The notes below the pieces were generated by a model that saw only the letters and a list, made by a program, of their open reading frames with translations, ran no database searches and was not told the origin of the DNA. From a virus, in IMG/VR virus record IMGVR_UViG_3300013102_000005, positions 29,778 to 93,777 of that record: 64,000 nucleotides of DNA; one strand, written 5' to 3'. This document shows, piece after piece, positions 41-58,111 of the stretch. Within the stretch, counting starts at the first letter, position 1, and every line of letters starts with the position of its first letter. The position numbers were made by a program, and so were the translations under genes.

Positions 41-84
41 ATGGTAGGGGGCGCCAGGGGGCGTCCTCGGCCGAGCTTTCCGAT
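41..84 (-). promoter_or_regulatory. Putative late promoter (ATCGGAAA-N30-TACCAT), pointing out of the window
   Basis: Same motif and exact 30-nt spacing as six other copies. Confidence 0.7.
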
Positions 85-85
85 G

Positions 86-565
86 TCAGATGCCGGTGAG
101 TTCGTCCTGGCGCGGCTGCACCAGGTACTTGGTGACATAGGGGGGAATGGCGGACGGCGAGGTCCGGCCGACCACCTCGTAGGGGATGATCATTCCGTTG
201 CCAGGGAAGACGTCGAAGCGGTCGTGCTTCTTGATCTCGAACGCGCCCTCGGTGAGCGGCTCGATCTGACATTCCATGACGCCCTCGCTGTAGGTGACGC
301 CGTCGTCGCTGTCGATCAGGTTGTTATCGCCTTGGTAGACGCCCATGAACAGCACCTTGGCATCGCCCAGCTCGGGATAGGTGTAGGCCGCCTCGTCCTC
401 GCTATCGAGCACGCCGACGCCGCCCATGTCGGGCAGGCCGCCTACCACCTCCTCGGAGGTGCGCAGTACCTGCTTACGGTAGACCGTGCAGGCCATGCTG
501 TTGGGATGGCGCAGGGTCACCTGGCGCTGGCCACGCTGGGCCTGGATGGAGACGTTCGACAGCAT
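86..565 (-). CDS. Putative virion (head-tail/neck) protein
   Basis: 159-aa ORF, third gene of a late operon with P1-like structural genes. Confidence 0.55.
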   Translation of the reverse strand: MLSNVSIQAQRGQRQVTLRHPNSMACTVYRKQVLRTSEEVVGGLPDMGGVGVLDSEDEAAYTYPELGDAKVLFMGVYQGDNNLIDSDDGVTYSEGVMECQIEPLTEGAFEIKKHDRFDVFPGNGMIIPYEVVGRTSPSAIPPYVTKYLVQPRQDELTGI

Positions 566-574
566 GGGGACTCC

Positions 575-1624
575 TTAGCCTGCGGTCTTGGTGGCGGCCA
601 GTGCGGCCTGCGCCTGGGCCTCGGAAAAGCCCATGCTCATCAGCTGCTGGATGAACTTGGCATCGGGCACGGGCGCCTTGGCGGCGGCTTTCTTGGCCGA
701 GTTGGCGCGTTGCTGGCGCTGGGCCTCCAACTGACGCTGGTAACCGGGCTGAGCCTGGCGTTGCTTGCGCTTCTCGTCGCTGGTCTTGAGCTGCCGGGTA
801 CGCGATCGCTCGCCCTTCATCTGCTCGGCCAGGGCGTGCATCTGCTGCAAGCTGATGCGCTTCTGTTTCGTGCTGACCTGATTGCGCTCGGACTCGATCA
901 TCCGGGCCACGTAGTTGCGCATGGCCGCCGACTGCGACAGGGCGGTCACGGTGCGCAGGATGTGCTTGCAGGCCAGGCCGTGCAGGTTCGGGTTGCGGAC
1001 CTTTGGGAACGCCGATTCCCGGTGCCTGGCGTCGGCGTTGTAGTTGCCGGCGGTGGCCATGTAGGCGTACCAGAAGCGCCAGCGCTCGCAGTCGCAGGAG
1101 ATCGATACCGCCCCCTTGAGGAGCGGGCCGACGATCTCGCTTGCCGGCTTGGGCGAGACAACGTAGGCCTCAAAGTCGCGCAGCTTGACCGTCACGTAGT
1201 GGCGGCTCTTCTTCGACTCAGGCCCGGCGTTGGTCATGAACCGCAGTTCGCCGCCGCGCAAGGTGTGGGGCATCGCTTGATGGATCTGGGAGCGCGCTCG
1301 CTCGCGATCCTCGGCCAGGGACATGTCGATCACGTCCTTGATCTTGACCCCGCCCTTGTACTTGTTCTGGAGCCGGTCGCGCTGGCGCGTGAACTCCAGC
1401 AGGTCGTCCATGGTGAGCGGTCGGGCCTTGCCGCCGCGCGTGGTGATGTAGCGCCACAGCGTGCCGGCGTCGGCCTTGCCGTTGAGGATGTCGTCGGGGT
1501 TGAGCAGCGTGCCGGATTGGCTGCGTACCGCATTGTCCTGCTTGAACTGGCGGCTCTGCTCGGCCAGGCCCTGCTGGGCACTGACGGCGTTCGGGTCCCG
1601 GCGCTTCACCGGTGCCTTGGCCAC
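575..1624 (-). CDS. P1 gp7-like tail/morphogenesis protein with SWIM-type Zn motif
   Basis: CDCERWRFWYAYMATAGNY...FPKVRNPNLHGLACKH resembles the P1-family protein. Confidence 0.7.
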   Translation of the reverse strand: MAKAPVKRRDPNAVSAQQGLAEQSRQFKQDNAVRSQSGTLLNPDDILNGKADAGTLWRYITTRGGKARPLTMDDLLEFTRQRDRLQNKYKGGVKIKDVIDMSLAEDRERARSQIHQAMPHTLRGGELRFMTNAGPESKKSRHYVTVKLRDFEAYVVSPKPASEIVGPLLKGAVSISCDCERWRFWYAYMATAGNYNADARHRESAFPKVRNPNLHGLACKHILRTVTALSQSAAMRNYVARMIESERNQVSTKQKRISLQQMHALAEQMKGERSRTRQLKTSDEKRKQRQAQPGYQRQLEAQRQQRANSAKKAAAKAPVPDAKFIQQLMSMGFSEAQAQAALAATKTAG

Positions 1625-1625
1625 G

Positions 1626-1922
1626 TCAGCGCACCGACCGCGCGGAGGTGCTGGCGAAGCTGGTCATCTGCTTGAAGGCGAGCAACTGGGCGGGCGTAGG
1701 CAGCACCAGGCGGCGCTGGGTCAGTTCCTGGAACGGATGGTCGATGCCGGCAGCCGCGATAACGGCCAGGTACTCATCGCGCGTGCCATAGACGCGCTGG
1801 CTGACGAGGGTGGCGTCCCAGCGCTCGTCGGGCTGGGTGTCGTAGCGAATCGCTTCCTGCCAATCCTTGCGGGTGGCAGCGAACTCGCGGACCTTGCGGT
1901 AGAACTGGCTGGATTCAATCAT
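1626..1922 (-). CDS. Baseplate wedge protein (P1 gp26/T4 gp53/LysM-like)
   Basis: 98 aa, DERWDATLVSQRVYG...LVLP pattern. Confidence 0.65.
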   Translation of the reverse strand: MIESSQFYRKVREFAATRKDWQEAIRYDTQPDERWDATLVSQRVYGTRDEYLAVIAAAGIDHPFQELTQRRLVLPTPAQLLAFKQMTSFASTSARSVR

Positions 1923-1928
1923 GCCGCC

Positions 1929-1972
1929 ACTATGTCGCGGCGGCAGAGGCCTATCTGGCGGCGGTTTCCGAA
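1929..1972 (-). promoter_or_regulatory. Putative late promoter (TTCGGAAA-N30-CATAGT)
   Basis: Motif 1965-1972, -10 at 1929-1934, directly before the start codon at 1922. Confidence 0.7.
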
Positions 1973-2779: not shown

Positions 2780-4318
2780 CTACCGGATGCCCATGGCCGC
2801 CAGGGTCCTCGCCACCGCGTCGTCCTTGCGCTCGGAGACGGCCAGCACCTGCACGTCCTCGCTCTGGATGTAATGGGCGTTCTCCAGGAAGGCAAAGGCG
2901 ATGGTGTCCCAGATGTCAGGGGAGGGCAGGCCTTCCTTCTGCTGCATGTCGATCTTGCTCATCAGCTGCCACCGGCCTTTCTCGTCGAAACCGAAGGGGA
3001 TGCGTGAGCCTTGGTCGAGCATGTCGTTCTGCTGGGCATCGCAGAAGCTGATTCGGTTGTTGTCCACGGCCAGTTTCAGGTGCACGTTGCACTGGGCCCG
3101 CTGGTTGATGAAGCGCTCGCGGTATTCTTTGCGGAAGTTCGGCACGCCCCAGCTCACGTTGGTGATCAGGGGTACGCCCAGGCGCTCCAGCATCTTGGCG
3201 AACTGGATGCCCTGGCCACCGACGTCCACCAGCACGGTGCAGTTCGAGTATTTGGCAGCCTCCAGCGCCACCATGGCCGCCGCGTCCGTCCAGTCCCGGC
3301 TGTTGGTGTAGATCGGGATGTCCAGGACGTCCACCCGCCTGGGCTCGGGCGCCTCCGACCCGCCCTGGCCGATGACCCGCACGAGGGTGCCCACCGTCTT
3401 GTCGCGGTAGACGCCGCCGCCCACGTCCACCAGCAGGAAGTAGCCGTAGGGCTCGTCCTCGCCGATCACGCGATGCTCCTCGCCGATCAGGCGCTCGATG
3501 GAGCGCCGGCCGAGCAGGTACTTGTCGGAATGCTCGGGGAACCGACCCTGGACCTTGACCTGGTACTCCACGGAGTCGCGGCTGCCGTACTCCAGCGCCT
3601 TGTCGCGGATGAACTCGTCCGAAACGATGGGCGAGTCCTCGGAGTTGAACACGAGGCTCGTCCAGAGCCCTCCGTTGCGTACCGCCCACTTGTGATGGGT
3701 CTCGTAGAAGAAGCCCGACCCCCGGGTAGGCTGGCTGGCCAGCGCAAAGCGGTTGCGCTTGTCGGTCAGGGCGCCGGCGATGACCTTGAGGTTCGCGTCG
3801 GGGATACCCGAAGCCTCGTCACCCAGCCACAGCAGGTAGTTGCCGTGCGTACCGGCCATGTTCTCCGGCGAGCCGCGCGGTGCCGTCCGGCAGGTGATGA
3901 ACCAGCGCATGCTGGCGCCTTTGACGTAGACCTTCTTCGCCTTGATCTCGAAGTATTCGGCCACCCAGCCCTGCGGGCCCTGCTCGATCACCTCCTTGAG
4001 GGTCGAGAACTCTTTCCAGATGCCTTCCGACAGGGTGTTGAGCTTGGGCGCGGTCAGGTAGGTGTTGCTGTCCGCGTAGCAGAGCAGGTGCCACAGGGCG
4101 ATGACGGCAAAGGAGCGGGTCTTGCCCGTACCGTGACCGGACGACACTGAGGTGCGCGAGCCGAAGGGGGAGACACTGTTGAACAGGTCCACCTGCTGCC
4201 AGGTGATCGAGGTCATGCCGCAGACCTCTACGGCGAAGCGCGCCGCATCCATCGCATAGCGCTCGGCGAAGGCCTTCCAGCGGACATCGGCCGAGAGGGC
4301 CCGGATCTTCTTAGCCAC
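2780..4318 (-). CDS. pacB: Terminase large subunit, P1 PacB-like
   Basis: Walker A SGHGTGKT, Walker B DEASG, C-terminal nuclease DVGGG...SPDIWD. Confidence 0.92.
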   Translation of the reverse strand: MAKKIRALSADVRWKAFAERYAMDAARFAVEVCGMTSITWQQVDLFNSVSPFGSRTSVSSGHGTGKTRSFAVIALWHLLCYADSNTYLTAPKLNTLSEGIWKEFSTLKEVIEQGPQGWVAEYFEIKAKKVYVKGASMRWFITCRTAPRGSPENMAGTHGNYLLWLGDEASGIPDANLKVIAGALTDKRNRFALASQPTRGSGFFYETHHKWAVRNGGLWTSLVFNSEDSPIVSDEFIRDKALEYGSRDSVEYQVKVQGRFPEHSDKYLLGRRSIERLIGEEHRVIGEDEPYGYFLLVDVGGGVYRDKTVGTLVRVIGQGGSEAPEPRRVDVLDIPIYTNSRDWTDAAAMVALEAAKYSNCTVLVDVGGQGIQFAKMLERLGVPLITNVSWGVPNFRKEYRERFINQRAQCNVHLKLAVDNNRISFCDAQQNDMLDQGSRIPFGFDEKGRWQLMSKIDMQQKEGLPSPDIWDTIAFAFLENAHYIQSEDVQVLAVSERKDDAVARTLAAMGIR

Positions 4319-4472
4319 GCGCGCGCTCCGCCTTGAGGCGCGCCAGGGCCTGCTCGATGAGTTCCAGCGAGGTGGCGGCTACCAGCATCGTCAGGCAGTC
4401 CTGGGCGACGGTCAGCTGGTGGTCGTCGATAGCGGCGGCCTGAGCGCGGCGCCGGCGCTTGGCTTTAGGCAT
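4311..4472 (-). CDS. Small 53-aa protein overlapping the terminase start (MPKAKRRRRAQ...)
   Basis: Translated by hand; lies between late promoter and terminase. Confidence 0.55.
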   Translation of the reverse strand: MPKAKRRRRAQAAAIDDHQLTVAQDCLTMLVAATSLELIEQALARLKAERARG

Positions 4473-4500
4473 GATGTGGGTATCCAGAAAAAGTCAGGAA

Positions 4501-4544
4501 ACCCTACTGGCGCCCAGATAAGGGCTAGCTGTTCACTTTCCCAT
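4501..4544 (-). promoter_or_regulatory. Putative late promoter (ATGGGAAA-N30-TAGGGT) for the terminase operon
   Basis: Variant motif with the same 30-nt spacing. Confidence 0.6.
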
Positions 4545-6978: not shown

Positions 6979-7951
6979 CGCCGTCCTCCCGCGCCTTCTC
7001 GGCTGCCTTGAGCTCGGCCTTGCGCCGGTTCTCCTCGTGGGTTTCGCGCACGTGCCGGGCCGTGGCCACCACCGCATTGAGCGAGCGGATGGTCAGGGGC
7101 ACCGTCATGCTGCCCAGGACCGTCTCACCGGTGCGGTAGCGCTCCACCTGCTCCAGGATCGACTCGGGCAGCTCGGCCACGAGCTGGAGCGAGGCGGCCA
7201 GCAGGTCCTCGGACAGAGCGCGCGGGATGGCTGGGGGCAGGGCGGGCAGTGCCTTGCGGGTCTTGCGCTCCTCCAGCATCTTGGGAGTGACCTTGGCGCC
7301 GCCGGCTTCCTCGCTGATCGTGCGGATCTCGGCGGCCGCCTCCTCCCCAAATGCTCGAAGGGCCTTCACGGCGGTGCCGGGGGCGATGACGTCCTGGTCG
7401 ATGAGGTCGCGCACGTCCTCGCCGCCATGGGCAATCTTGAGCAGCTGCTCCACGTACTGGCGAGAGAACCCCACGAGCTTGGCAATCTGGGCGGCTGGTA
7501 GGCCGTCGGTTTCGGCGAAGTCACGCACCACATCGGCCAGTTCGACCGGATCCAGCGGCTCCTGGCTCTGGGAGGTGACAATGCGCGCCTTGCACTCCAG
7601 CTCGTTGCCGATGAAGGGTTTCAACCCGATCAGCGGGATGGTGTAGCCCCAGGACTCCAGCAGGCGCAGCGCACGAATGCGGCGGTGCCCCTCGATCACC
7701 TTGAGTCCGCCCTCGGCCCGCGCCTGGACCTCGATTTGCGGCAGGACGTTGTTGATGTCCACCAGCGTTTTGGTCGCCTTGTCCTTGATCAGGCTGCGAG
7801 CGCTGCGCTCGATGCTGGCGTCCAGCTTGGGACCCTCGCGGCGCTTGTTGAAGCCGGGCGTGAAATGGAACTGGTCCAGGGCGGCAAACATGCCTTTGTC
7901 GGTGCGCTTGATGATCTTCTCGTTGATCATCTTTTGGATCGAATTACTCAT
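6968..7951 (-). CDS. ParB N-terminal domain/HTH protein
   Basis: PGFN.R, IEGHRRIRA, HTH IAKLVGFSRQYV. Confidence 0.8.
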   Translation of the reverse strand: MSNSIQKMINEKIIKRTDKGMFAALDQFHFTPGFNKRREGPKLDASIERSARSLIKDKATKTLVDINNVLPQIEVQARAEGGLKVIEGHRRIRALRLLESWGYTIPLIGLKPFIGNELECKARIVTSQSQEPLDPVELADVVRDFAETDGLPAAQIAKLVGFSRQYVEQLLKIAHGGEDVRDLIDQDVIAPGTAVKALRAFGEEAAAEIRTISEEAGGAKVTPKMLEERKTRKALPALPPAIPRALSEDLLAASLQLVAELPESILEQVERYRTGETVLGSMTVPLTIRSLNAVVATARHVRETHEENRRKAELKAAEKAREDGDEQ

Positions 7952-8060
7952 ACCTGCTCGCTCCTGAGCGTGCATGCGCGCCAAGGGCGCTGGCCGGCTG
8001 CCACGTGATGGATATTGAAAAGCACTAGGGGGCTCAGGGCGGGGTCCAGACTGTCTGGAG

Positions 8061-8627
8061 TCATAGTATCCGGGCCTCCCGCCGACGAGTCGGGCGATCG
8101 CCCAGGACGGCCGTCATGGCGTCCTCTGCGGCCCGGTACTCGCACCCCATGATCTCCACGCAGTAGGGAGCGGCAGCTGCGCTGACATGGAAGTAGAACC
8201 AGCCATCCACCCCGTCGAAGCAGTGGTAGCCGCGCCGTCGCTCATGACTCGCCAGGCTAACGCCCAGCTGACCCATCAGCCGCGACATGTCGGCGAGGAA
8301 ATAGGGGCGCTCGGCCGCCCAGCAAGCCCGTAGGGCGGCGATCTCGTCCAGGCGGATGTCGCGTAGCTCTTCGGGCGTGTTCACCGCAGGCACGCAGCGG
8401 GGAATGTAGCCGCCCTGGCCGCGCAGCTCCCACAGATGCAGGTTCGGCTGGGCTTCGAAGTTCAGGCCCGAGAACGAGCGGCCGCCCAGGTCGTTAAAGA
8501 ACACCGGCCGGCTGCCGGGGAAGTGATGGGCAAAGGCCTCGCCTTCGAGCTGCACGCGGCGGCAGTCGAGCAGGTACTGCTGGCGTGCATGTAGCACGTC
8601 AGGATTCTTGGTCTTGTAGTAGCTCAT
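8061..8627 (-). CDS. Hypothetical phage protein
   Basis: 188-aa ORF in operon. Confidence 0.6.
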   Translation of the reverse strand: MSYYKTKNPDVLHARQQYLLDCRRVQLEGEAFAHHFPGSRPVFFNDLGGRSFSGLNFEAQPNLHLWELRGQGGYIPRCVPAVNTPEELRDIRLDEIAALRACWAAERPYFLADMSRLMGQLGVSLASHERRRGYHCFDGVDGWFYFHVSAAAAPYCVEIMGCEYRAAEDAMTAVLGDRPTRRREARIL

Positions 8628-8644
8628 GGCAACGCGGTTCCTGC

Positions 8645-8974
8645 TCAGGCGCTGAGGGTGGCGGCGGGGATGTCGAGGAAGTAGCTGTTCTCGCCCTGGC
8701 CGGCGCGCATCACCCCGATGACGGTGCTGTCCCGGTGCAGCAGGACGTTTCCAAGCCGATCAAAGCGGGGCGTGACGTTCTCGCGCAGCAGGGCGCGATC
8801 CCAGTCCTGGGCAGTGCAGGGACGGATACGGGCCGCGCATTCCAGGGCCTCCTGGCGGGCAGCGGCGGCAGATACGCCGGCCATGCGCAGCAGGAAGTAG
8901 CGGGCGCCAACGCGGCGGTTGTAACGGCGCGTCAGGTAGACGAGCGATCCAATGAGCGCTGAGGTGTGGGACAT
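8645..8974 (-). CDS. Hypothetical protein
   Basis: ORF in operon. Confidence 0.5.
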   Translation of the reverse strand: MSHTSALIGSLVYLTRRYNRRVGARYFLLRMAGVSAAAARQEALECAARIRPCTAQDWDRALLRENVTPRFDRLGNVLLHRDSTVIGVMRAGQGENSYFLDIPAATLSA

Positions 8975-9112
8975 GGTGCATTTCCGTGTGGTGAGCCGGC
9001 GATCCTGCCGGCGGGTGTGGCGCGCAATCTGTCGTCGCGCTGCCTGGGTATCTCGATAGGGGCCGTCCTCGGCGCCTATCGACAGACCCAGTGCTCGCCT
9101 GGGCCTGCCCTG

Positions 9113-9397
9113 CTACATGCGTCGCCGCTGGCGACCCGCTGCGGGACGCATCCGCACCGTCCCCTGGGTGCCATGCCGGCCACTGAGCGTCCGCCACGCC
9201 ATCGTGTAGCCCATGCCGGCCAGGCGCATGGACATGCGGCGAACCCTACGCAGATCGGCCTGCGGATCGAGATCACCGTAGGTCTTGAGCGTGAGGGTGC
9301 GCACGACGTCGCCCGAGTCGTAGCCGACGAACTCGAACACGACCGCATTGGCGGTTGGGAAGGGGGTGGATACCTCAGCAAGCGGGCGGGACTGCAT
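9113..9397 (-). CDS. Hypothetical protein
   Basis: AGGAG RBS, first gene after operator/promoter. Confidence 0.55.
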   Translation of the reverse strand: MQSRPLAEVSTPFPTANAVVFEFVGYDSGDVVRTLTLKTYGDLDPQADLRRVRRMSMRLAGMGYTMAWRTLSGRHGTQGTVRMRPAAGRQRRRM

Positions 9398-9445
9398 GGC
9401 CTGAACTCCTGTATCGGCCCGGCAGGAGGCCGAGCAACGGACAGG

Positions 9446-9510
9446 GAAAGCCTACTGCAAGCCGCTAGCGAAATTCAAGCATATGCTACAATTATTTATA
9501 TCGCATGATA
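9446..9510 (-). promoter_or_regulatory. Early sigma70 promoter with operators
   Basis: TTGAAT-N18-TAGGCT; operators AAGCATATGCTA (9477-9488) and TATCGCATGATA (9499-9510). Confidence 0.6.
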
Positions 9511-9517
9511 TGAATAA

Positions 9518-9748
9518 TCAGATGGACATTTGGCGCCTGATCCACTGGAATAGCAGTATCCAAAGCATGACAGGCCAGATGACGACACACAGCAGGCTTG
9601 TAGCAAATGCTGATTTTATTGCGGACGCTCTCCCGCGTTCCTCCACCAGCTGGAGAAAGTCGGGATCGGCAAGGAGGTCGTGGCGATCGAGCCACAGGTA
9701 CAGCGCCCAGAGCAGGGCGCCGACCAGGTAGAGCATGAACCAATTCAA
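9518..9748 (-). CDS. Small two-TM membrane protein
   Basis: Two hydrophobic segments; similar layout to 14336..14596. Confidence 0.6.
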   Translation of the reverse strand: MNWFMLYLVGALLWALYLWLDRHDLLADPDFLQLVEERGRASAIKSAFATSLLCVVIWPVMLWILLFQWIRRQMSI

Positions 9749-10482: not shown

Positions 10483-11225
10483 GCCTGGGCCTCACGCCAG
10501 CCGGCGAGCACCGTCCCAACGATACGCACCACCTCGTCCTGGGTAGCGGGGGCCGGCAGCGGAGAGCCGTATGCTTCACCGCGCGGATGGTAGGCGAACC
10601 CCTGGCCAGTCATAGGCAAGCCGAGCTGGAGGATCTCCACGGCGAAGCCCTGGGCCTCGATGCGGTGTGGCAGGTGGGCGTCCAGGGTGTAGCGCTCGCC
10701 CATGCGGTGAATACTCGCGCGCTGCTTGCGCAACTGCACCTGGCGCGCAAAACCACTGGCCAGGCGCAGGCTATTGACCGGCTGGCGCAGCAGGACGCCG
10801 TCGCTGTTCTGCCCGACCTCCTGGAACGAGGTGCACAGCAGGCCGCCGGCCAGGACGAGGGACTCATAGCCGCGCGCCTGGCTGCCGAGGTCACTGACGT
10901 CGGCGCAGCGATCGATAGCGCTCCAGATCCGCAGCTCGACCAGGCTGGACAGCCGGCAGGACAGCAGACCGGCCCGATCAATCACCCAGGGCAAGGCCAA
11001 GGTGCCGGCCAGGGACTTCTCCAGCAGCTGGCGCACCTCCAGCCGAGTGGCGGCGATGGTGAGGGTATCGCCGATCCGTGCGTCCACACGGCCGCGCTTG
11101 GCGGCCTTCTTTTCGGCCTTGGTTGGCCGGGCACCCTGGCGCAGGCGAACCGGCTGCGGGCGGCGGGGCGCGGTGTCAGGATTGGCGGCGACGACAAGGC
11201 TTTCGCCGGCAGTGATTTCGTTCAT
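10479..11225 (-). CDS. Hypothetical protein
   Basis: 248-aa ORF, 4-nt overlap with next gene. Confidence 0.6.
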   Translation of the reverse strand: MNEITAGESLVVAANPDTAPRRPQPVRLRQGARPTKAEKKAAKRGRVDARIGDTLTIAATRLEVRQLLEKSLAGTLALPWVIDRAGLLSCRLSSLVELRIWSAIDRCADVSDLGSQARGYESLVLAGGLLCTSFQEVGQNSDGVLLRQPVNSLRLASGFARQVQLRKQRASIHRMGERYTLDAHLPHRIEAQGFAVEILQLGLPMTGQGFAYHPRGEAYGSPLPAPATQDEVVRIVGTVLAGWREAQA

Positions 11226-11757
11226 GGCTGTGCTCGTGCAGAGGGAAGGGGTCAGCTCGCCAGGCGCGAGCCTTTGGGGGCCGGAGTGCCTAGAACGGCC
11301 TCCATGCGTCCGAGGGCGCCGCGCACCAGGCGTCGGCCACGCTCCTCGGCTTCCAGGCGCTGCTGGGCGCAGACCTGGGCGAAGGTGTCCGGGCGAATCG
11401 GCAGGGGCTCAGGCTGTACGACCCTGGCCTCCAGCTCATCCGCATAGCGCTCATAGCTGCGAGCACGGTCCCGCTCCCACTGGGCGGCCTGGCCGTCGGC
11501 ATACAAGGCATCCCTGCGGATCTCGGCGGCAAGCTTGCGGTAGTGCTCAGGCGTCTGGGGCACGTGGAGTCTCCTCGATAACGCCAGCAGCTTGCGCCAT
11601 GGCCAGGCCCGCCTCGGCGATGACATTCCGGCGCGCGACGCTATCGAGCTGGTCGGCCAGATCGAGCAAGGCCAGCAGCTCGGCACGCGGCCACACCACG
11701 GTGGCATAGGCGCCGCCGGCGGAGAGCAGCTGCTGGCGCAGCAGATCCCGCTGATCC

Positions 11758-12075
11758 TTATCCATGAGCTGGCACCTCACGCCCGCTGATCGCTGTCTCC
11801 AGCCTGGCCACGAGGCCGGCCTCGGAATGCTGGGCAGGGTTGGCGCTGACCGACACCTGCCAGCTGAGGACGCCGTAGCACTCCACTAGAAGATTGAGCA
11901 GCAGGGTGTCACGGGCGGCCGCCTGCTGGATGGCCTGGGCGGTCGTGGCCATGACCATCTGATTGACGATGCGGATGGCCTCGAACTGTGAGGGCGCAGG
12001 CTCGCCCAGGAACTGGTCGGCGGCCTGCTTGAGGTTGCGCATGGTGGGGCTGGAGAGCGGGTAGGCGGTGGGCAT
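11758..12075 (-). CDS. Hypothetical protein
   Basis: GGAG RBS, downstream of operator at 12161. Confidence 0.55.
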   Translation of the reverse strand: MPTAYPLSSPTMRNLKQAADQFLGEPAPSQFEAIRIVNQMVMATTAQAIQQAAARDTLLLNLLVECYGVLSWQVSVSANPAQHSEAGLVARLETAISGREVPAHG

Positions 12076-12160
12076 GTCGGCTCCGTTCAGAAACAGCGAG
12101 GGCGCCGAACCGAAGTGCGGCGCCCTCATTCTTGGGCGGAGCCACTATGCCTCTTTTTTC

Positions 12161-12172
12161 TATCACATGCTA
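12161..12172. promoter_or_regulatory. Operator site TATCACATGCTA
   Basis: Fits consensus, AT-rich flanks. Confidence 0.6.
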
Positions 12173-12355
12173 CATTTTTTGGGAGGGTATCGGCGCTATC
12201 GCACCGTATCGCCGGAGCAGTTGCTCAGCTCGCTGGCGTCGCTCTCGCTCCGCAGCAAGATCCGCTACGGCCTTGCGGTACAGGCCGCCAAAGCAGGCCA
12301 GGAACAGCGCAGAGCCGGCAAGCATGCCGAGCGCCAGGACGAGGATTGGTGACAT
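12170..12355 (-). CDS. Small membrane-anchored protein
   Basis: N-terminal hydrophobic helix. Confidence 0.45.
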   Translation of the reverse strand: MSPILVLALGMLAGSALFLACFGGLYRKAVADLAAERERRQRAEQLLRRYGAIAPIPSQKM

Positions 12356-12386
12356 CGTGCAACCCTTGGAGGTAGTTTCGGGTATG

Positions 12387-12436: not shown

Positions 12437-12658
12437 CTACAGATCCGGCTTGATCAGGTCGAATCGCGTGCAGAAGCTCAGGAAGAGGCGTCCGTTCATT
12501 TCGTGCTTGCCCTCCTCGTAGTAGCCCCACATGCGTGCCGTCACGCCGATGCAGGCGGCGGCCGCAGTTGGCGAGACGTCGGCCAGCTTGCGGGCCAGCG
12601 CCACCTGTTCCTTGGTGGGGCTGGGGAAGGTCTTAACGTTCAATCGGCGAGCGGCCAT
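12437..12658 (-). CDS. XRE-type HTH protein
   Basis: ARKLADVSPTAAAACIGVTARMWGYYEEG. Confidence 0.75.
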   Translation of the reverse strand: MAARRLNVKTFPSPTKEQVALARKLADVSPTAAAACIGVTARMWGYYEEGKHEMNGRLFLSFCTRFDLIKPDL

Positions 12659-27389: not shown

Positions 27390-27510
27390 AGGGAGAACCT
27401 TGCAGGAATGAGAGGAACACGACCACGGAGCGCCCTGCTGATCGAGCAATGGGAACCGTAGGCGATGCGGGGTATCGAGCCTTGCCGACTAGGGCAGGTA
27501 TGTGAGCACC

Positions 27511-27554
27511 AGGGTATGAGGTGCTACGGGACGAAGCGGAGGGGGCTTTCCGAA
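27511..27554 (-). promoter_or_regulatory. Putative late promoter (TTCGGAAA-N30-TACCCT) for terS
   Basis: Motif and spacing conserved. Confidence 0.7.
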
Positions 27555-28115: not shown

Positions 28116-28283
28116 ACGTCACCTGGGTGATGGGTGAAACCATGGAAGAAAAACGCATGCTGGACCTCGGTAACGGTTGAATGGGTCCCGGTTACTCCAT
28201 CCGGGGCGCTCTGGTAGCGGCTTCGAGGGCACGCTGTGCGCAGCAAGCGACTTGCGGTCGCGGCGCCCGATACCCTGGGCGCG

Positions 28284-28460: not shown

Positions 28461-28486
28461 CACACTGCCGTGGGTGCAATCGGGGG

Positions 28487-29761: not shown

Positions 29762-29973
29762 AGTGCTCATGCCCTCTTGACGCCCGTTGCCGGGGAGGAC
29801 TTACGACTGGGTCCCGCCATTGGGCCAGCCCACTCCGTTGGGCGACCCTGCCGAGGAGGTTGCCGGCAGGCGTATCAGCTGTGTGGGATGGTGGCCCTAC
29901 GCTCTCCACACCCACGTATCCAGGCTATCCCTCCGCGAGGGCCGCCCTGGCACGGTGTTTCCAATCCCTCAGC

Positions 29974-30717: not shown

Positions 30718-30839
30718 GGACGACGTCTCTCATGGGGTGAATTTCTGTAGCAAATGATAGAAATATCACACCCTAACCGCAACGCAGTTCACGCTTTCCC
30801 TGTGAACTTATTCCCATTGACAGGATCGTTTCTGTCGAT

Positions 30840-31332: not shown

Positions 31333-31611
31333 CTACTCCTCGGTGGCGTTGAGCCCCAGGATCTCGTGCACCCGTTGTTTCAGGGCTGGGAAGAGGTGCG
31401 GGGCGTCCCGGCGCTCGGCCTGCATGATGCGGCGGCGCTCCAGACGATCCGGCTGGGACATGATGAAAGCGGTCAGGTAGTCCACCCGGAGCGCCTTTCC
31501 GATTTCGCAGTAGCGCGCCGACGGCGCATGGCAGCAGCGTGCTGCGCTCATGATGTGAGCGAGGTAAGGCGCGTGGGCCGCTTCCACCGGATCAGTCTCG
31601 AGATCGGTCAC
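31333..31611 (-). CDS. Hypothetical protein
   Basis: GTG start overlapping upstream stop; H/C cluster. Confidence 0.55.
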   Translation of the reverse strand: MTDLETDPVEAAHAPYLAHIMSAARCCHAPSARYCEIGKALRVDYLTAFIMSQPDRLERRRIMQAERRDAPHLFPALKQRVHEILGLNATEE

Positions 31612-32979: not shown

Positions 32980-33266
32980 GCTGGCTTGACCTTGCGTGTG
33001 GCCCGGCTGGGCTGGAGGGTATAGGTCTGCCCTTGGTCGAGATCCCATGGGGTCTCGCTCTGGCAGTCCACACAGATTTTCAGGCGCAAGCTGGGCAGCT
33101 GAACCATGCACTTTCCGAAACAGCGCGGACAGACCTTGGTGGTCGGCAGGTCCGCGCCGGCAGGCGCGGCGGTCCGGTGACGCGCCTGGCGCCACCGATT
33201 GGATTTGGGCTTGCTCCAGACCCAGGCCAGCGCGACGCTCACGGCGAGCAGGATGATCTGTTTCAT
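32976..33266 (-). CDS. Membrane-anchored Zn-ribbon protein
   Basis: N-terminal hydrophobic helix, CPRC...CVDC. Confidence 0.6.
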   Translation of the reverse strand: MKQIILLAVSVALAWVWSKPKSNRWRQARHRTAAPAGADLPTTKVCPRCFGKCMVQLPSLRLKICVDCQSETPWDLDQGQTYTLQPSRATRKVKPA

Positions 33267-37458: not shown

Positions 37459-37936
37459 CCGTTGGTAACCCGTCCCGCAGCTCCTGGAGTAACTCCAGTT
37501 TCGCCTGCGCCTTGATGGCGTCTTGGGCCAGGTTTCCCATTCGGAAGTACAGCGCCGACATCACGTAGTCCCACTTGATCGCATGGGAAGGGTCTTCCTC
37601 CCACACAAGCTCCCTCATATCGAGGGTGCCGCCAGACTCCTTGTCCAGATTGATGGCCAGCCAGACCGCGATATTGCGATCACCCGAGGCAACTTGCCGC
37701 AGGTGGCCCAGCGTGGTCCCGCAGCGCTTGGCGAACTCCTCACGCTGCTCCGGCGAACGGAGGTTGCGCTTGATGAACAGCCGTAACGCCACCAGGCCGG
37801 GCCTGGATTTGCGCTCCTCCTTCGCCGAATCCACGGCCCGCTTTCCCTTGGGCTTCTGGTCTAACTCCTTGCCCTGATCTTCGCCGGCCGCTCCGACGTC
37901 CTTTCCGCTCAGCCCGTTATCGGCATTCGCGTTCAT
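37421..37936 (-). CDS. Cro/YdaS-like transcriptional regulator
   Basis: REEFAKRCGTTLGHLRQVASG.R...LAINLDKESGG. Confidence 0.8.
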   Translation of the reverse strand: MNANADNGLSGKDVGAAGEDQGKELDQKPKGKRAVDSAKEERKSRPGLVALRLFIKRNLRSPEQREEFAKRCGTTLGHLRQVASGDRNIAVWLAINLDKESGGTLDMRELVWEEDPSHAIKWDYVMSALYFRMGNLAQDAIKAQAKLELLQELRDGLPTDAQSISKGKKGS

Positions 37937-44584: not shown

Positions 44585-44943
44585 TCAGCCTCAAGGTCTC
44601 TCCTGACCTTGCCCAGGCGCTGCGGGGCGGCCGCAAGACCGTTCACCGGCTGCCGGCGGCCGAGGCCCAGGCGCTCGGGGCTGGCGGCCTCGTCGGGCAG
44701 CGTCTCCAGCTGGTCGAGGCTCTCCCTTTCGGCAAGACGGCCGCGATCGGCATTGCCAGCATCAGCAGCGTCCAGGACGTGCACCTGGAGGACATGGACG
44801 ATTCGGAAATAGCGGCCGAGGGCTTCGCCAGCTGGGCGCTATTTTCGCATCACTGGGATGACCGATACGGCCGCAAAGGCCTACCGGCGATCCTCAACCC
44901 GCCCTGTGTCCGCCTCGCGTTCGTCCTGGAGCCCACCCCGTGA
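44581..44943 (+). CDS. ASCH-like protein
   Basis: LRGGRKTVHR...AAEGF...F...W pattern. Confidence 0.6.
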   Translation: MISLKVSPDLAQALRGGRKTVHRLPAAEAQALGAGGLVGQRLQLVEALPFGKTAAIGIASISSVQDVHLEDMDDSEIAAEGFASWALFSHHWDDRYGRKGLPAILNPPCVRLAFVLEPTP

Positions 44944-45248
44944 ACATCATGCTCGTCTGCACCCTCCTCTCCCTTGGCCTCGGCGCCCTCTGCTGGCAGG
45001 CCTATCGCTTGCCCGCCACGATGGAGACCCGCGTGGCCATGCTGGGATTTGCGGCGGTAGCGAGCATCCTGCTGCTGGCCGGCCAGTTCTTGTGGGCGCC
45101 GGCGGATCGCTGGGCGGCGGAAAGTCGTTTCGCCGTGCGCCAGCTGGAGATCCAGGCAGAAGCCGCCAGCGCTCGCGCCATGGTCGAGGCACTGGGCGGC
45201 ACCGCCGCCTACATCGAGTACCTGCGCGCCAAGGAGGGCCGGCCGTGA
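44940..45248 (+). CDS. Membrane protein
   Basis: Two TM segments. Confidence 0.6.
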   Translation: MNIMLVCTLLSLGLGALCWQAYRLPATMETRVAMLGFAAVASILLLAGQFLWAPADRWAAESRFAVRQLEIQAEAASARAMVEALGGTAAYIEYLRAKEGRP

Positions 45249-47500: not shown

Positions 47501-47803
47501 CTGCTTCGGCTTGCCGTAGCCCGCTGCGCGCAGCGCATCCTCAATGATGTGGCTCACAGCCTTGTGGCCGTCTGTCTTGTTGCGCTTGTTCTGGTAGATC
47601 TCGTCGTTCAGCTGCTGGAGCATCTGCGACGGCAAGGTGATGGTGATCCGGTCGCGCCCTTCGGGTTCTTCCGGCGCTGGGTTGTCCTGTCCGTACTCAC
47701 GATTGGCCAATGTCTTGGCCAGTGCCTGGGAGATCGCGGGATCCGGCGGGAGGCGATCCTCGGCGGGTAGTTCCTGGGGCTGGGAGTTGTTGGGCTTACG
47801 CAT
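47498..47803 (-). CDS. ParG-like ribbon-helix-helix centromere-binding protein
   Basis: Overlaps parA stop; RITITLPSQMLQQL...AVSHIIEDAL. Confidence 0.75.
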   Translation of the reverse strand: MRKPNNSQPQELPAEDRLPPDPAISQALAKTLANREYGQDNPAPEEPEGRDRITITLPSQMLQQLNDEIYQNKRNKTDGHKAVSHIIEDALRAAGYGKPKQ

Positions 47804-48446
47804 CGCCGAATACCTCCGCATACAGGGCTTCGACCTCGGCACGTGCCTTGTCGTCGTTCGCCTCCAGCACGCCCTTGCCCTGGGCGGCGCTATCCCGGTA
47901 GACCTGGCGGTAGCAGGCGATGGCCGCCAAATACTCGAGTTCGGGCAGCTCCTTGATGAAGCTGACGAAGTCCTCGCGCTCGCGCTTGGATAGATGAGGG
48001 TGGGTGCTGGCCATCGATTGGTAGCAGCGGACGCGCAGGCGCTTGTTGTGCAGGCGAGCAGCACGTGCCTGGGCCGACAGCTCTTTCATGGTGTCCATGT
48101 CGAACTGGCTGGACTGATGCGGCGCTATCACCTGGTCGGCCACGAGCATGCCCGTTACGAGCTCTTCGCTGTTCCGGCCGGCCACGTCCACCAGCACGTG
48201 CTGGTACTTCTTAGCCATGTCGAACAGCGCCATAGCGATGTCGCCGCGCGCCTCCACCATCGGGATGCGCGGCTCGATCTTTTCCTCGTTGCGGTACTGG
48301 ATGAAGTCGGGCAACGACTTCTGCTTGTCCGCGTTCACCACGATGAAGTCGAGCCCCAGATGGGCCATCTTCACTGCCATTTGTATGCAGGTGGTGGTCT
48401 TGGTGGCGCCGCCTTTGTTGCAGCCAACGATCGTTATCTGTCCCAT
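47796..48446 (-). CDS. parA: Type Ib ParA partition ATPase
   Basis: Deviant Walker A NKGGATKTT, VDVAG, 216 aa with no N-terminal HTH. Confidence 0.92.
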   Translation of the reverse strand: MGQITIVGCNKGGATKTTTCIQMAVKMAHLGLDFIVVNADKQKSLPDFIQYRNEEKIEPRIPMVEARGDIAMALFDMAKKYQHVLVDVAGRNSEELVTGMLVADQVIAPHQSSQFDMDTMKELSAQARAARLHNKRLRVRCYQSMASTHPHLSKREREDFVSFIKELPELEYLAAIACYRQVYRDSAAQGKGVLEANDDKARAEVEALYAEVFGDA

Positions 48447-52326: not shown

Positions 52327-52677
52327 CTAGCCGTTGCATGTCATGCCAGGCGCGGCCTCTAGCACATCTGCCACTTCTGGCGCCGTGCGGCTGCGAAATT
52401 CGGAGCGCAGACACAGATCCCGCATTTCGATCCGCAGGGTCTGGGTATCAGCAATCAGCTCGCCACGGTCACTCTGGCCATACGCCGCAACGTTCAGCCG
52501 GCCCAGGGCGCGGCGCGCCATCGACTGCCACGCTTGAACCTCATCCGTCCGCCAGGCCAGCATCGCCTCGCACCGATAGGCATTGCGCCGCAGTCGCTGA
52601 TTCTGGCGCATGCTCACCATCAGTAGCAGAGACATCAGCAGCAGGGCGACGAGCGCGACGGTGGTGGTGGTGATCAT
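52327..52677 (-). CDS. Membrane-anchored late protein
   Basis: N-terminal TM; own late promoter. Confidence 0.6.
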   Translation of the reverse strand: MITTTTVALVALLLMSLLLMVSMRQNQRLRRNAYRCEAMLAWRTDEVQAWQSMARRALGRLNVAAYGQSDRGELIADTQTLRIEMRDLCLRSEFRSRTAPEVADVLEAAPGMTCNG

Positions 52678-52708
52678 GGAGAGCCTCGGTAGGGGATGGT
52701 GTGCCACT

Positions 52709-52752
52709 ACGGTAGTGGCAGCCGAAGGGCCTACGGCGGGCGACTTTCCGAA
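52709..52752 (-). promoter_or_regulatory. Putative late promoter (TTCGGAAA-N30-TACCGT)
   Basis: Motif and spacing conserved. Confidence 0.7.
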
Positions 52753-54157: not shown

Positions 54158-54911
54158 TGGGCGAGTCTCTGAAATAGGGTCGATATTTATGGCTGCGAAC
54201 GTCGAGGATGTTGGTGACATATTCGCGGTTGATCGCGAAAAATGACTTGCCATAGCCTGGCGATGGACGGCGTGCTTTCAGGCTATGTAGGGCGACGTGA
54301 CCATCCCAGCGAGAGGGATCGCACCCCCGCGTATTGGCGCAGAGTCGGCGATCCTGGAGCACGCCCGACTCGCCGCCGTTGTAGCCTGAAAAGGTAAAGC
54401 TCCAGCGGTCCCGGTCAGTGGCGGCGCCCTTCTGCCGCTGGTAGATGCCCTTGTCCATTTCCACCAGGGCGGTCAGCTGGTAGCGGCCGTCGTAGCGGTT
54501 CGCCCAGCCCCAGCCCTTGAGGGTGGGATAGGTGCTGGCCAATTCGGTGATCTTGTCGAAGCGGATCGAGCCGTCCGCGCGATAGGCTCGCGTGAACTGG
54601 CCCAGGCCGATGCCGTTCTCGCGCTTGGTCTTGAGCTCAGCGCGGGGGTTCCAGCACTTCGAGTGGGTCACCGTGATGCAGGATTCCTGCTCGATCTGGC
54701 CGGCCAGCACCTCCGGGGAGGGCGCGTCCGGCCAAATCAGGCGCTGCTGCTGGGCCAGAATGGGCAGCAGTGGCTTCGCGCCTGCCGGCACCTCGGCGGC
54801 ATGGGCAATCGTGGGCACGCACAGCATTACCGCCGCCACGCCCAGGATGCCGATCACCGCCAGCAGCGCCAGCAGGTAGTGGACCAGGGGCTGGACTAGG
54901 CGCGGACCCAT
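54150..54911 (-). CDS. Endolysin, SLT lytic transglycosylase with N-terminal TM
   Basis: GQIEQES...WNPRAEL...GLGQF...YNGG...INREYV. Confidence 0.88.
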   Translation of the reverse strand: MGPRLVQPLVHYLLALLAVIGILGVAAVMLCVPTIAHAAEVPAGAKPLLPILAQQQRLIWPDAPSPEVLAGQIEQESCITVTHSKCWNPRAELKTKRENGIGLGQFTRAYRADGSIRFDKITELASTYPTLKGWGWANRYDGRYQLTALVEMDKGIYQRQKGAATDRDRWSFTFSGYNGGESGVLQDRRLCANTRGCDPSRWDGHVALHSLKARRPSPGYGKSFFAINREYVTNILDVRSHKYRPYFRDSPNG

Positions 54912-55216
54912 AGCACCATCCCCAGGAAGACCAGGCCCACGAAGAGCACCAGCGCCGCCGCCAGCAGGCCGGCCGCCACGTTGCCCTGGCGGATCTCCGC
55001 GACCAGCCAGGCGATGGACACCTGGGGGAACATGATGCGGGTGATGATGATCGTGAGCCCCGCCAGCACCAGGGGCACCAGCACCCACTGGCCGATGGTC
55101 TGGGCCATGGCGGGATCGATGTAGATCAGTGCAATCGCCGCCGGCAGCATCAGCAGCCAGGCGCCTTGGTCGAAGAGGGAACGGATCAGGAGAAAGAGGT
55201 GCTTGAGATTGCCCAT
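54896..55216 (-). CDS. Putative holin (3 TM)
   Basis: Hydrophobic, overlaps endolysin start. Confidence 0.65.
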   Translation of the reverse strand: MGNLKHLFLLIRSLFDQGAWLLMLPAAIALIYIDPAMAQTIGQWVLVPLVLAGLTIIITRIMFPQVSIAWLVAEIRQGNVAAGLLAAALVLFVGLVFLGMVLWVRA

Positions 55217-55246
55217 GGAAGGCTCCGGCTCAGGTGATTTCGCCGG

Positions 55247-55290
55247 ATTGTGATGGCCGCGCGCTAGCACCCCGCGCGCGGCTTTCCGAA
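55247..55290 (-). promoter_or_regulatory. Putative late promoter (TTCGGAAA-N30-CACAAT) for lysis operon
   Basis: Motif and spacing conserved. Confidence 0.7.
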
Positions 55291-56318: not shown

Positions 56319-56325
56319 GGCGGGC

Positions 56326-57003
56326 CTACACGAGGTTGGTGAAGGTGTCGAACTGGACGAAGGACAGTTGCAGCTCCTGCATGCCGTCCTGGCGGCGCGA
56401 GCCCTCGTATTCGATGTTCTGCGGCCGCACCACGTAGCTCTCTACGAAGGCGCGGCCGGCGTTCTCGGACTTCTCGCTGATGAACGCATGGGTGATGGTG
56501 ATCCGCACCAGGTAGGAGAGCGGTAGGCCTACCGTCCCATCCCCTGGCGCCATCGCGCGCTTCAAGGTCTTGAACCAGGTCTTCACCGAACCGCCGACAT
56601 CGTCCATCGTCGTCAGGCGCAGCTGGACGGCTTCCACGCCATCCACCCGGTCGAAGCTGCCGGCGCCGACCGCCACCGACTCACCGCGCACGGTGAAGGG
56701 GGACACCCCGAAGTCCACGATGAACATGTTCATCGCCGGGGCGGTGCCGGTTTGCAGGTTGGTGACGTTGACGTGGTAGAGATTGGCCTTGGCCCGGTCG
56801 ATGGACATGAACTCATCGGCCATCGACCGCCAGTTCTTCTCGGACAGGCCGCCGAAAAGGGCCCGGTCGCCGGCGCGCACCGAGCTCGTGAGCTTCTGGC
56901 TGATCAGGTCGGTCCCGAACTTGATCAGCGGCGAGGCCTGGCCGAGGGCGGTCAGGTAATTCTGCCCCACCTGGTTAGCGAGCCGGCTAAAGATGCTACT
57001 CAA
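56326..57003 (-). CDS. P1 Tub-like tail tube initiator
   Basis: MFIVD...TWFK......DGTVGLP.SYLVRI. Confidence 0.7.
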   Translation of the reverse strand: MSSIFSRLANQVGQNYLTALGQASPLIKFGTDLISQKLTSSVRAGDRALFGGLSEKNWRSMADEFMSIDRAKANLYHVNVTNLQTGTAPAMNMFIVDFGVSPFTVRGESVAVGAGSFDRVDGVEAVQLRLTTMDDVGGSVKTWFKTLKRAMAPGDGTVGLPLSYLVRITITHAFISEKSENAGRAFVESYVVRPQNIEYEGSRRQDGMQELQLSFVQFDTFTNLV

Positions 57004-57565
57004 TCGTGATCACCTCGAACCGGTATGCCAGGCGCTCCATGCGCTCCTCGACCTGGCCAATCTCGACCTGGATCTCACCGGTGGTGCGCCCGTAGATCTC
57101 GGCGCCCATGCCGCGAGACGATTCCAGCGCGGTGGCATTCTCGAGTTCGATGTAGAGGCGAAAGAGCGGCCAAATCAGCGCGTATTCACTGGGCGTCAGG
57201 TCGAAGTCCTGGCTACCGGAGAAACCGTTGGTGGCGTCGATGGGGGTATGCACCTCGGTGCCCGGCGCTGGCCACTGGGACACCTGGGGCTCCGGATCGC
57301 ACCGGTCCTCGACGCCCTTGAGCGCGTAGCTCAGGAAGTCGGTGACCGGAACAATCACGGGCGGCGGAAGGGCACGATGAGCCGCCTCCGCCACGCGCTC
57401 CTGCGCCTGGAGCTGTTCAAAGGCGCTGGGCGCGTGCACGAGCGTGGCATAGCCGCAGTAGAACCGAATGGCATTCTTGAGGTGGCGGGTGACCTGCCCC
57501 TCCGTCAGCACGTTGCCCAGGGGCAACTCGGCCAGATACGCGGCGACCAGCTCGGAGCAACGCAT
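56996..57565 (-). CDS. Putative head-tail adaptor/virion protein
   Basis: Within structural operon. Confidence 0.55.
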   Translation of the reverse strand: MRCSELVAAYLAELPLGNVLTEGQVTRHLKNAIRFYCGYATLVHAPSAFEQLQAQERVAEAAHRALPPPVIVPVTDFLSYALKGVEDRCDPEPQVSQWPAPGTEVHTPIDATNGFSGSQDFDLTPSEYALIWPLFRLYIELENATALESSRGMGAEIYGRTTGEIQVEIGQVEERMERLAYRFEVITIE

Positions 57566-58038
57566 TACGCCTTACCGACGTAGTGGTAGTACATGGTGCC
57601 GCTCCACATGGAGACCTGGGTGCGGTTCTCGATGTCGCGGTCCATCGGCTCGACACGCAGGAAGGCGAGCGTGATACGGGCGGTGTCGGAGGGGTTCTCG
57701 TAGGTGCCCCGGTAGACGCGAGCGTTGAAGCGGCCGCCCTGCTCGTTGATCTTGTGCAGCATCGCCTTGATGTGGCCGGCCTTGGTTTCCATCATGGTCA
57801 CCGCGCCTTCCTGGGCGATATTGATCTGGGCCGGCTGGTGGTGCTTGAGGCCCATCGGCATGGGCACCTCGACGTTGCCCTCCGGGGTCAGAACCGGCCA
57901 GGGAAACTGCTTGAACAGAAAGCGTTCTTGCTCATAGCCGTCGATGACCATGAAGGCGTCGGAGTTGATGTCCTTGTCACCCAGCGCCATGACGCTGTCG
58001 AGCGATTCGGAGAGATAGGATTCGTTGGAAACGGTCAT
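57565..58038 (-). CDS. Tail tube protein, P1 BplB-like
   Basis: Size and G.K...S.F...P.G.K.HQ...EG.V..MET..G.I pattern; own late promoter. Confidence 0.7.
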   Translation of the reverse strand: MTVSNESYLSESLDSVMALGDKDINSDAFMVIDGYEQERFLFKQFPWPVLTPEGNVEVPMPMGLKHHQPAQINIAQEGAVTMMETKAGHIKAMLHKINEQGGRFNARVYRGTYENPSDTARITLAFLRVEPMDRDIENRTQVSMWSGTMYYHYVGKA

Positions 58039-58067
58039 GCTGACCTCCCATGTAGGTTGATGCGCCT

Positions 58068-58111
58068 ATCATGGATGGGCCGATAAGCCGCAACGGGGCG
58101 ACCTTTCCGAA
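58068..58111 (-). promoter_or_regulatory. Putative late promoter (TTCGGAAA-N30-CATGAT)
   Basis: Motif and spacing conserved. Confidence 0.7.

Follow-up and report, generated by a model that had tools for sequence, protein, structure and literature searches.

The 64,000-nucleotide stretch of DNA analysed here (the window; bases 29778-93777 of the 93,777-bp virus record IMGVR_UViG_3300013102_000005) carries a repeated arrangement, or grammar, in which the box [T/A]T[C/G]GGAAA is followed after exactly 30 nt by a -10-like hexamer, and most copies stand directly before the late genes of a phage-plasmid. The arrangement of these sites and their conservation in relatives make it very probable that they are activator-dependent late promoters. 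A preliminary description of the window had listed seven minus-strand copies and the hexamer belonging to each; all seven were confirmed, and the list proved incomplete, an eighth full copy being present at 31496-31503(-) with the hexamer CATCAT. In the full record, 13 minus-strand copies have YAnnnT exactly 30 nt after the 8-mer, five of them outside the window. These 13 core copies comprise 12 strong ones at late genes and the copy at 31496, and a few weaker ones exist besides.

The degenerate 8-mer [T/A]T[C/G]GGAAA occurs 17 times in the window, compared with 3.2 occurrences expected from shuffled sequences, none of which reached 17, and 15 of the 17 copies are on the minus strand. No 8-mer of the whole record is more over-represented than TTCGGAAA (10 copies, 0.5 expected), which holds the same rank in the related Pseudomonas plasmid pPRS08-11306. 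When the gapped motif search proposed in the preliminary description was run over the record, nA...T was found at an offset of exactly 30 after 17 of the 22 box matches, while the other offsets between 15 and 45 had 0-2 matches each, save for smaller peaks at 41 (7) and 44 (3); the same search showed that the grammar is retained in relatives. De novo discovery of a word plus hexamer on 20-kb loci was dominated by coding periodicity.

Alignment of the core sites gave the consensus wTCGGAAAG, 29 unconserved bases (C-rich at -16/-15), (c/t)A..AT, 5-6 bases and A, which adds to the grammar a G after the box and an A 6-7 nt past the hexamer. A2 and T6 of the hexamer are present in all 13 core sites, an invariance that is partly a product of how the sites were selected. 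The earlier statement that the copies share no -35 was borne out, since no position of the 29-nt spacer is conserved in the aligned sites, and nothing is conserved 16-18 nt past the box or between -41 and -17. If the A 7 nt past the hexamer is taken as +1, the hexamer spans -12 to -7 and the box -50 to -42, in agreement with the position of about -43 to -50 proposed before. A weight matrix trained on the 12 late-gene copies, with the copy at 31496 excluded, placed the 13 core sites at the top of the genome and picked up one further variant, GCCGGAAAG-N29-CACCAT, before the Hdf-like anti-restriction gene. Of the 13 core sites, 11 fall between genes or within the final codons of the gene before.

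In two cases, the gene for the baseplate wedge (window 1922) and that for the DarB-like protein (record 9692), the ATG is at hexamer + 7, on the predicted +1 itself, and neither gene has space for a ribosome-binding site. In pPRS08-11306 and viral contig G004, the ATG at the matching sites is at hexamer + 7 or + 8, and the hexamer-N6-ATG of the baseplate wedge site is found in both. The mRNAs of the two genes are thus predicted to be leaderless, and the coincidence of ATG with predicted start in two genes supports the -10 assignment, because such a coincidence is what a leaderless mRNA would require and would be hard to explain otherwise. In a sister clade whose box reads GCAAAC, the same baseplate gene has a normal leader.

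The genes behind the core sites encode the major capsid, portal, baseplate wedge and tail tube proteins, both terminase halves (terS and terL), a holin and a spanin-like protein, together with a 638-aa protein that has a minor-head-protein-like match, a DarB-like protein, and the product of a 1421-aa open reading frame (ORF) assigned solely by alignment to a gene of Xanthomonas phage Rb1 annotated as tail fibre. Six copies had been placed before baseplate, terL, terS, membrane, lysis and tube genes, and this placement gained support from PHROG matches, except that the membrane gene behind 52745 is assigned by sequence alone: its 116-aa product has an N-terminal transmembrane segment and appears spanin-like, with no PHROG match. 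The hexamer before this gene is embedded in a 17-bp palindrome. The seventh copy, which had been noted to point out of the window, has the portal gene downstream. A terminator-like intrinsic hairpin lies immediately upstream of the predicted tail tube promoter, whose counterpart in pPRS08-11306 keeps box, spacing and hexamer and has a changed spacer. The site with the weakest box is followed by a 53-aa gene (4311-4472) and then by terL, and its ortholog in pPRS08-11306 carries TTCGGAAAC. Coordinates of the sites and of the principal genes are collected in Table 1.

Table 1. Predicted promoter sites and principal genes. Coordinates are those of the window unless "record" or a locus name precedes them.
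Feature	Position	Strand	Box, spacer, hexamer	Remarks
Predicted late promoter	34..84	(-)	ATCGGAAAG-N29-TACCAT	before portal gene; best matrix score, 35.3
Predicted late promoter	1922..1972	(-)	TTCGGAAAC-N29-CATAGT	before baseplate wedge gene 1626-1922
Predicted late promoter, weakest box	4494..4544	(-)	ATGGGAAAG-N29-TAGGGT	matrix score 18.4
Predicted late promoter	27504..27554	(-)	TTCGGAAAG-N29-TACCCT	before terS 26463-27449; pPRS08-11306 ortholog at 85622
Eighth full copy	31453..31503	(-)	ATCGGAAAG-N29-CATCAT	matrix score 23.3
Predicted late promoter	52702..52752	(-)	TTCGGAAAG-N29-TACCGT	before 116-aa gene 52330-52677
Predicted late promoter	55240..55290	(-)	TTCGGAAAG-N29-CACAAT	before holin gene 54896-55270 and lysis block
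Predicted late promoter	58061..58111	(-)	TTCGGAAAG-N29-CATGAT	predicted +1 A; before tail tube gene 57565-58038
Weak intragenic copy	33069..33119	(-)	TTCGGAAA-N30-GAAAAT	within dUTPase-like gene
Weak intragenic copy	37490..37540	(-)	ATGGGAAA-N30-GAAACT	within first gene of leftward early operon
Possible plus-strand member	44802..44852	(+)	TTCGGAAA-N30-TATTTT	low matrix score
Candidate activator gene	29974-30717	(-)		247-aa XRE-type HTH_3 protein; last gene of leftward early operon
Split terminase, terL half	2780-4318			PHROG match
Split terminase, terS half	26463-27449			PHROG match
ParA partition ATPase	47796-48446			
Tail tube	57565-58038			PHROG match
379-aa virion protein gene	58148-59287			
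Tail sheath	60164-61783			PHROG match
DarB-like anti-restriction gene	record 7539-9692	(-)		outside window; directly behind late box
Hdf-like anti-restriction gene	record 11605-12372	(-)		outside window; directly behind late box
Portal gene	record 28216-29781			E = 2e-134
Terminator/promoter overlap, sister plasmids	L004:3270-3330			
Terminator/promoter overlap, sister plasmids	L005:3270-3335			
Terminator/promoter overlap, sister plasmids	L006:3270-3335			

The idea that motif and spacing occur together at late positions only did not hold strictly: the 12 strong copies are at late genes, but a few copies lie inside genes of early operons. The copy at 31496 is within a small conserved ORF, upstream of a NinB-like gene (30840-31319) and a helix-turn-helix (HTH) gene, and is conserved in pPRS08-11306 at 81511; it is possibly an internal or feedback promoter, or may be kept merely by coding constraint. 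Four of the nine remaining (non-core) box matches also have nA...T at offset 30, above the chance rate of 3%. The exceptional copies, at 33112, 37533, 44802 and, antisense, at 51504, have poor matrix scores, and three of the four have a counterpart in pPRS08-11306. That plasmid has TTGGGAAA-N30-CAAGCT at 79316, in a coding context resembling that of the copy in the dUTPase-like gene, and ATGGGAAA-N30-CAAGCT at 76217, in the region corresponding to the copy in the early operon. The arrangement at 44802, which lies inside a 120-aa ORF (44581-44943) and upstream of a 102-aa membrane-like ORF (44940-45248), is also kept there, at 69398.

Among annotated elements, the closest relatives of the record are Pseudomonas plasmids, and the 379-aa virion protein of pPRS08-11306 is 56% identical to the one encoded here. 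Remoter Pseudomonas relatives are a P. atacamensis plasmid, a P. fluorescens plasmid and pKF715C, and the outermost are Burkholderia pBVIE05, Xanthomonas phage Rb1, and Acinetobacter and Vibrio plasmids. In pPRS08-11306, the full grammar was found 14 times forward (about 11 unique matches after removal of a 20-kb assembly overlap) and twice in reverse, compared with 0 for a backwards control. Its sites are orthologous and head the genes for portal, baseplate, terS, terL, tube and capsid. They retain box, spacing and hexamer although their spacers are no longer recognisably similar, as would be expected if two elements contacted by protein were kept a fixed distance apart. Viral contigs G004, G006 and G007 have 14, 10 and 7 one-stranded copies, compared with 6, 0 and 0 for the backwards control on the same strand, and contig G005 has 4 + 2 copies compared with 0.

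The box itself varies among more distant elements. Three sister Pseudomonas plasmids are without TCGGAAA and have GCAAA(C/G)-N29-nA...T in the same intergenic regions, 13-17 copies each. In these plasmids, the intrinsic terminator of the upstream virion operon is often inside the 29-nt spacer, so that terminator and promoter overlap (Table 1). In phage Rb1, cGGAAAa-N29-nA...T heads the protease, capsid, lysis, tube and baseplate genes, and pBVIE05 has 12 one-stranded GGAAA-N30 copies compared with 0 in the control. In the Acinetobacter plasmid, GGAAT is followed by a hexamer after 28 nt, in 19 copies over a background of about 6. This plasmid resembles the phage described here in having a GGAAx box and a fixed spacer, with the hexamer cAnAAT and distantly homologous virion genes, but its spacer is 2 nt shorter, the flanks of its box are different and its spacers are A+T-rich. 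Judged by these matches, the grammar is not confined to this phage and runs through a large phage-plasmid family. In the chromosomes of three hosts in which elements of this kind occur, GGAAA-N30-nA...T was at the level of the backwards control in two and about 1.5-fold above it in one. This small or absent excess argues for a phage-encoded reader of the box over a host factor, as does the use of two different boxes by phages of one host genus. We found no description of the grammar in the literature searched.

The fixed spacing, the purine at +1, the leaderless ATGs, the placement at late operons and the conserved orthologous sites fit a family of late promoters that have no -35, and from these features we infer promoter function, the start of transcription and the existence of an activator. 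With a weak host-type -10 (nAnnAT) and no -35, each promoter alone should be almost silent, and wTCGGAAAG, at about -50 to -42, would be the docking site for a phage activator made from early genes. Placed just upstream of sigma region 4 and the alpha C-terminal domain, the activator would recruit or stabilise host RNA polymerase, and transcription would start at the A 6-7 nt past the hexamer, which in two cases is also the A of the ATG. Acting together, some dozen promoters of this kind would switch on the head, tail, baseplate, packaging, lysis and anti-restriction operons.

Several of these features recall known late-regulator systems. In phage P1, the late promoters (LPpac, LPhot, LPsit and others) are activated by Lpa (gp10) with the host protein SspA. 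The likeness to P1 includes a phage-plasmid of about 94 kb with about a dozen dispersed late operons, late promoters that have a -10 hexamer (of the TANNNT type), no -35 and one short phage-specific box, and Dar/Hdf-like genes under late control (Dar is expressed late in P1, and here the genes have late boxes in front of them). It extends to dispersed repressor operators at early genes and to a candidate activator gene just upstream of the packaging genes, as lpa is before LPpac-pacA-pacB. However, the 9-bp box of P1 is centred at -22 and lies 4-9 nt from the hexamer in the annotation of LPpac and LPhot, in contrast to -50 to -42 and 29 nt here, and Lpa has 150 aa, whereas the candidate described below is a 247-aa XRE-type HTH protein. 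No Lpa homologue had been recognised in the window before, and none emerged when the record and five relatives were searched with P1 Lpa by tblastn (best E = 0.11); hhalign of the candidate's HTH_3 profile with Lpa gave a probability of 1.7%. Two defining features of the P1 Lpa system, the -22 box and an Lpa homologue, are therefore not found in this one.

The middle and late promoters of phage Mu have a -10 with a poor or no -35 and a Mor/C site in the -30 to -55 region, from which Mor/C contact polymerase near sigma region 4 and alpha. The sites described here share the first two features, but Mor/C bind as dimers to dyad sites overlapping the -35, whereas the present box is asymmetric, lies further upstream and is followed by an unconserved spacer; moreover, Mor family PF08765 had no match in six frames of the genome. 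In P2, P4 and 186, the small activator Ogr, Delta or B binds upstream of the -35 and works through the alpha subunit. Those phages likewise have several late operons with a shared site upstream of the -35, but their site is TGT-N12-ACA centred near -55 and their activator is a zinc-finger protein; here the box is different, the sequence logo has no TGT-N12-ACA dyad, and Ogr_Delta PF04606 has no match in the genome. General features of activator-dependent phage late promoters are present (a weak core, a shared upstream site, use at most late operons and a co-occurring HTH_3 gene), and the sequence features point to a variant of this class that matches neither Lpa, Mor/C nor Ogr/Delta. The preliminary description had spoken of a late-transcription system without a match. 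This stands insofar as Lpa, Mor, Ogr/Delta and sigma region 2 were not found, but the system is not unique, as relatives share the grammar.

The most likely candidate for the activator, tentatively named here, is a 247-aa protein with an N-terminal HTH_3 domain (E = 5e-9) and a long helical C-terminal part. All relatives compared have its gene (W01-W04, Rb1, G004 and pBVIE05, with a weak homologue in the Acinetobacter plasmid), and no other regulator-like gene was found to be conserved throughout. The next gene is terS in pPRS08-11306, W02-W04, Rb1, pBVIE05 and contig L072; Holliday-junction resolvase/NinB genes precede the HTH_3 gene in most of these, as they do in contigs L068 and L071. In the annotation of P1 and D6, the gene order is lpa-LPpac-pacA, followed in P1 by pacB. 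About 430 members of the HTH_3 family were found at E < 1e-10, and a function is known for none.

Several observations weigh against this assignment or against the promoter interpretation as a whole. The box is asymmetric, 9 bp long and lacks a conserved second half-site, and XRE-type HTH proteins usually bind dyads as dimers. The recognition helix TQ[IVL]SL is near-identical in the TCGGAAA and GCAAAC clades and different in Rb1, so that co-variation of box and helix does not look convincing. The structure model consists of a generic HTH and low-confidence helices, with a C-terminal part too poor for a fold search, and no annotated relative of the protein was found. The HTH homologue of the Acinetobacter plasmid is weak and does not adjoin terL. 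Lastly, three to five copies of the grammar sit inside early or plus-strand genes.

Two other leads were examined and set aside. An ORF at 28487-28987 (-) has two tandem helix-hairpin-helix segments and a weak similarity to the alpha C-terminal domain (Pfam RNA_pol_A_CTD E = 0.002, below the cut-off; best PDB match Thermus alpha C-terminal domain, E = 0.016), and the gene caller, which is based on G+C content at third codon positions (GC3), favoured the opposite strand. It was rejected as activator because no homologue was found in the four related Pseudomonas plasmids that share the grammar, which places it outside the late system that these elements have in common. The pentapeptide LNPEF is nearly invariant in the HTH_3 family (within residues 148-165 of the 247-aa protein) and is also present in P1 Lpa (SLNPEFF, residues 84-101). 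D6 Lpa is without it, the hhalign probability is the low value given above, and the resemblance is probably due to chance.

If the sites are real promoters, the box might be read by a phage protein other than the 247-aa HTH protein, an alternative that we consider doubtful though still worth attention: a zinc ribbon encoded near terS, a 73-aa HTH protein (12437-12658), or a fast-evolving protein missed in the searches. Rb1 has two CxxC...CxxC ORFs (tandem zinc ribbons) between the HTH gene and terS, and before terS in the window there is a gene for a 178-aa Cys-rich protein (27579-28115, N-terminal CxC...CxxC) that has a homologue in pPRS08-11306. However, membrane helices are predicted in the 178-aa protein, for which W02-W04 yielded no homologue, the HTH gene and terS of pBVIE05 are too close together for another gene to fit between them, and a reader like Ogr/Delta is disfavoured by the lack of an Ogr_Delta domain. 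The 73-aa HTH protein is conserved in six Pseudomonas elements, with its gene right after terS in most relatives, but it went undetected in Rb1, pBVIE05 and the Acinetobacter plasmid, and in most relatives its gene is inside a late operon. In the window, the 73-aa HTH gene (minus strand) is at the end of an early operon that contains rtcB, while it is immediately downstream of terS in the sister plasmids and also downstream of terS in contig G004; by comparison of gene order, it has been relocated between early and late contexts.

It is unlikely that no phage activator is involved and that the box is a site for a host factor, or resembles an upstream promoter (UP) element, with late timing arising from copy number or loss of a repressor. 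Ross and Gourse are said to place the proximal UP subsite at -46 to -38, and the GGAAA core at -46 to -42, with its AAA at about -45 to -43, overlaps this subsite of the alpha C-terminal domain. Moreover, a G(G/C)AAA core is common to the Pseudomonas, Xanthomonas and Burkholderia phages. Because the AAA coincides with the subsite, a contribution of the alpha C-terminal domain at the box is possible. On the other hand, the conserved flanks (TTCG..G compared with ..GC...C) are not the same in different phage clades of one host genus, the box is G+C-rich save for three A's, and its spacing tolerance is essentially zero, unlike that of UP elements; nor is the grammar much enriched, if at all, in host chromosomes.

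The sites might instead act in RNA, as nut-like antitermination or processing elements in which the 9-mer and then a hairpin occur in read-through transcripts. Inverted repeats in several spacers and the terminator hairpin between box and hexamer in the sister clade would suit such a role, but in six of six genomes the spacers fold, on average, with the same energy as genomic 30-mers of matched GC content, the hairpins vary in position and are not always present, no Rfam match was found, and neither the A2/T6 hexamer at a fixed distance nor the cases of ATG at +1 would be explained, which makes this reading very improbable. Equally remote is recognition by a phage sigma factor or phage RNA polymerase with the box as upstream element, for although the promoter class is non-canonical and used on the phage only, Sigma70_r2 had no match, the sole region-4_2 match (14 bits, below cut-off) is in a gene not conserved in relatives, nothing is conserved 16-18 nt past the box, the 29-nt gap is too long (alternative-sigma promoters have -35 and -10 15-20 nt apart, and no sigma -35/-10 pair known to us has so wide a gap), and no polymerase was found among the approximately 40 ORFs scanned against PHROGs or Pfam.

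The record from which the window is taken has direct terminal repeats and a G+C content of 64%. Gene calls were GC3-based, and a subset was compared with PHROGs or Pfam. A myovirus-type virion is encoded, with sheath, tube, baseplate, portal and capsid genes, and these virion genes, together with the split terminase, ParA, the DarB/Hdf-like genes and the early operators, identify the record as a P1-like, temperate phage-plasmid. The major capsid gene crosses the record ends (window 62726-64000 (-) plus record 1-580), so that the ORF in the window covers no more than its C-terminal two thirds, and its true start is 47 nt past the hexamer of the predicted late promoter at record position 622.

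The palindromic early operator ATAGCAGATGCTACAA is found before early operons at window positions 17469, 20164, 26293, 38157 and 9476 (+), that is, five copies at <=3 mismatches, compared with 0.2 expected. These operators recall the C1 operators of P1, and the sister plasmids put a different word, AATGTACGGGGATAGTTTT, in the same role. A repressor operator before the HTH_3 gene, as in P1 Olpa, was sought as well, but only a look-alike with five mismatches was present (30750-30765), which we did not count. In the gene-poor stretch between the HTH gene and terS, ARAGORN called a tRNA-Met (CAT) at window 29694-29761 (-); since the whole window is without an Rfam match at gathering score, this tRNA would be non-canonical. 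A conserved ORF of the virion module, at record 10973-11503 (+), lies amid an otherwise minus-strand late region, and its homologues are co-oriented with the late genes in relatives. Its orientation could reflect an inverted segment (compare the C-segment of P1) or a wrong gene call.

It may be, although we propose this with reserve, that the Pseudomonas, Xanthomonas, Burkholderia and Acinetobacter elements, a large and so far unstudied family of P1-like phage-plasmids and temperate phages, share one late system not homologous to those of Lpa, Mor/C and Ogr, in which an XRE-HTH protein with a coiled-coil tail would bind a single asymmetric 9-bp box centred at -46 and bring host RNA polymerase to promoters without a -35, across a rigid 29-bp gap, with the box re-tuned from TCGGAAAG to GCAAAC, GGAAAA and GGAAT. 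Accessory and resistance genes are commonly carried by phage-plasmids, and, P1, N15 and a few others excepted, hardly anything is known to us of how these elements regulate their genes. The grammar provides a map of late transcription units for a whole family, comprising dozens of elements of 80-115 kb in Pseudomonas and its neighbours, and a simple sequence test for annotating its members. A rigid 29-bp gap combined with a single asymmetric box is unusual for bacterial activators and could inform how contact with RNA polymerase is made from -46, and the clade-specific boxes would provide Pseudomonas with orthogonal expression switches of phage origin.

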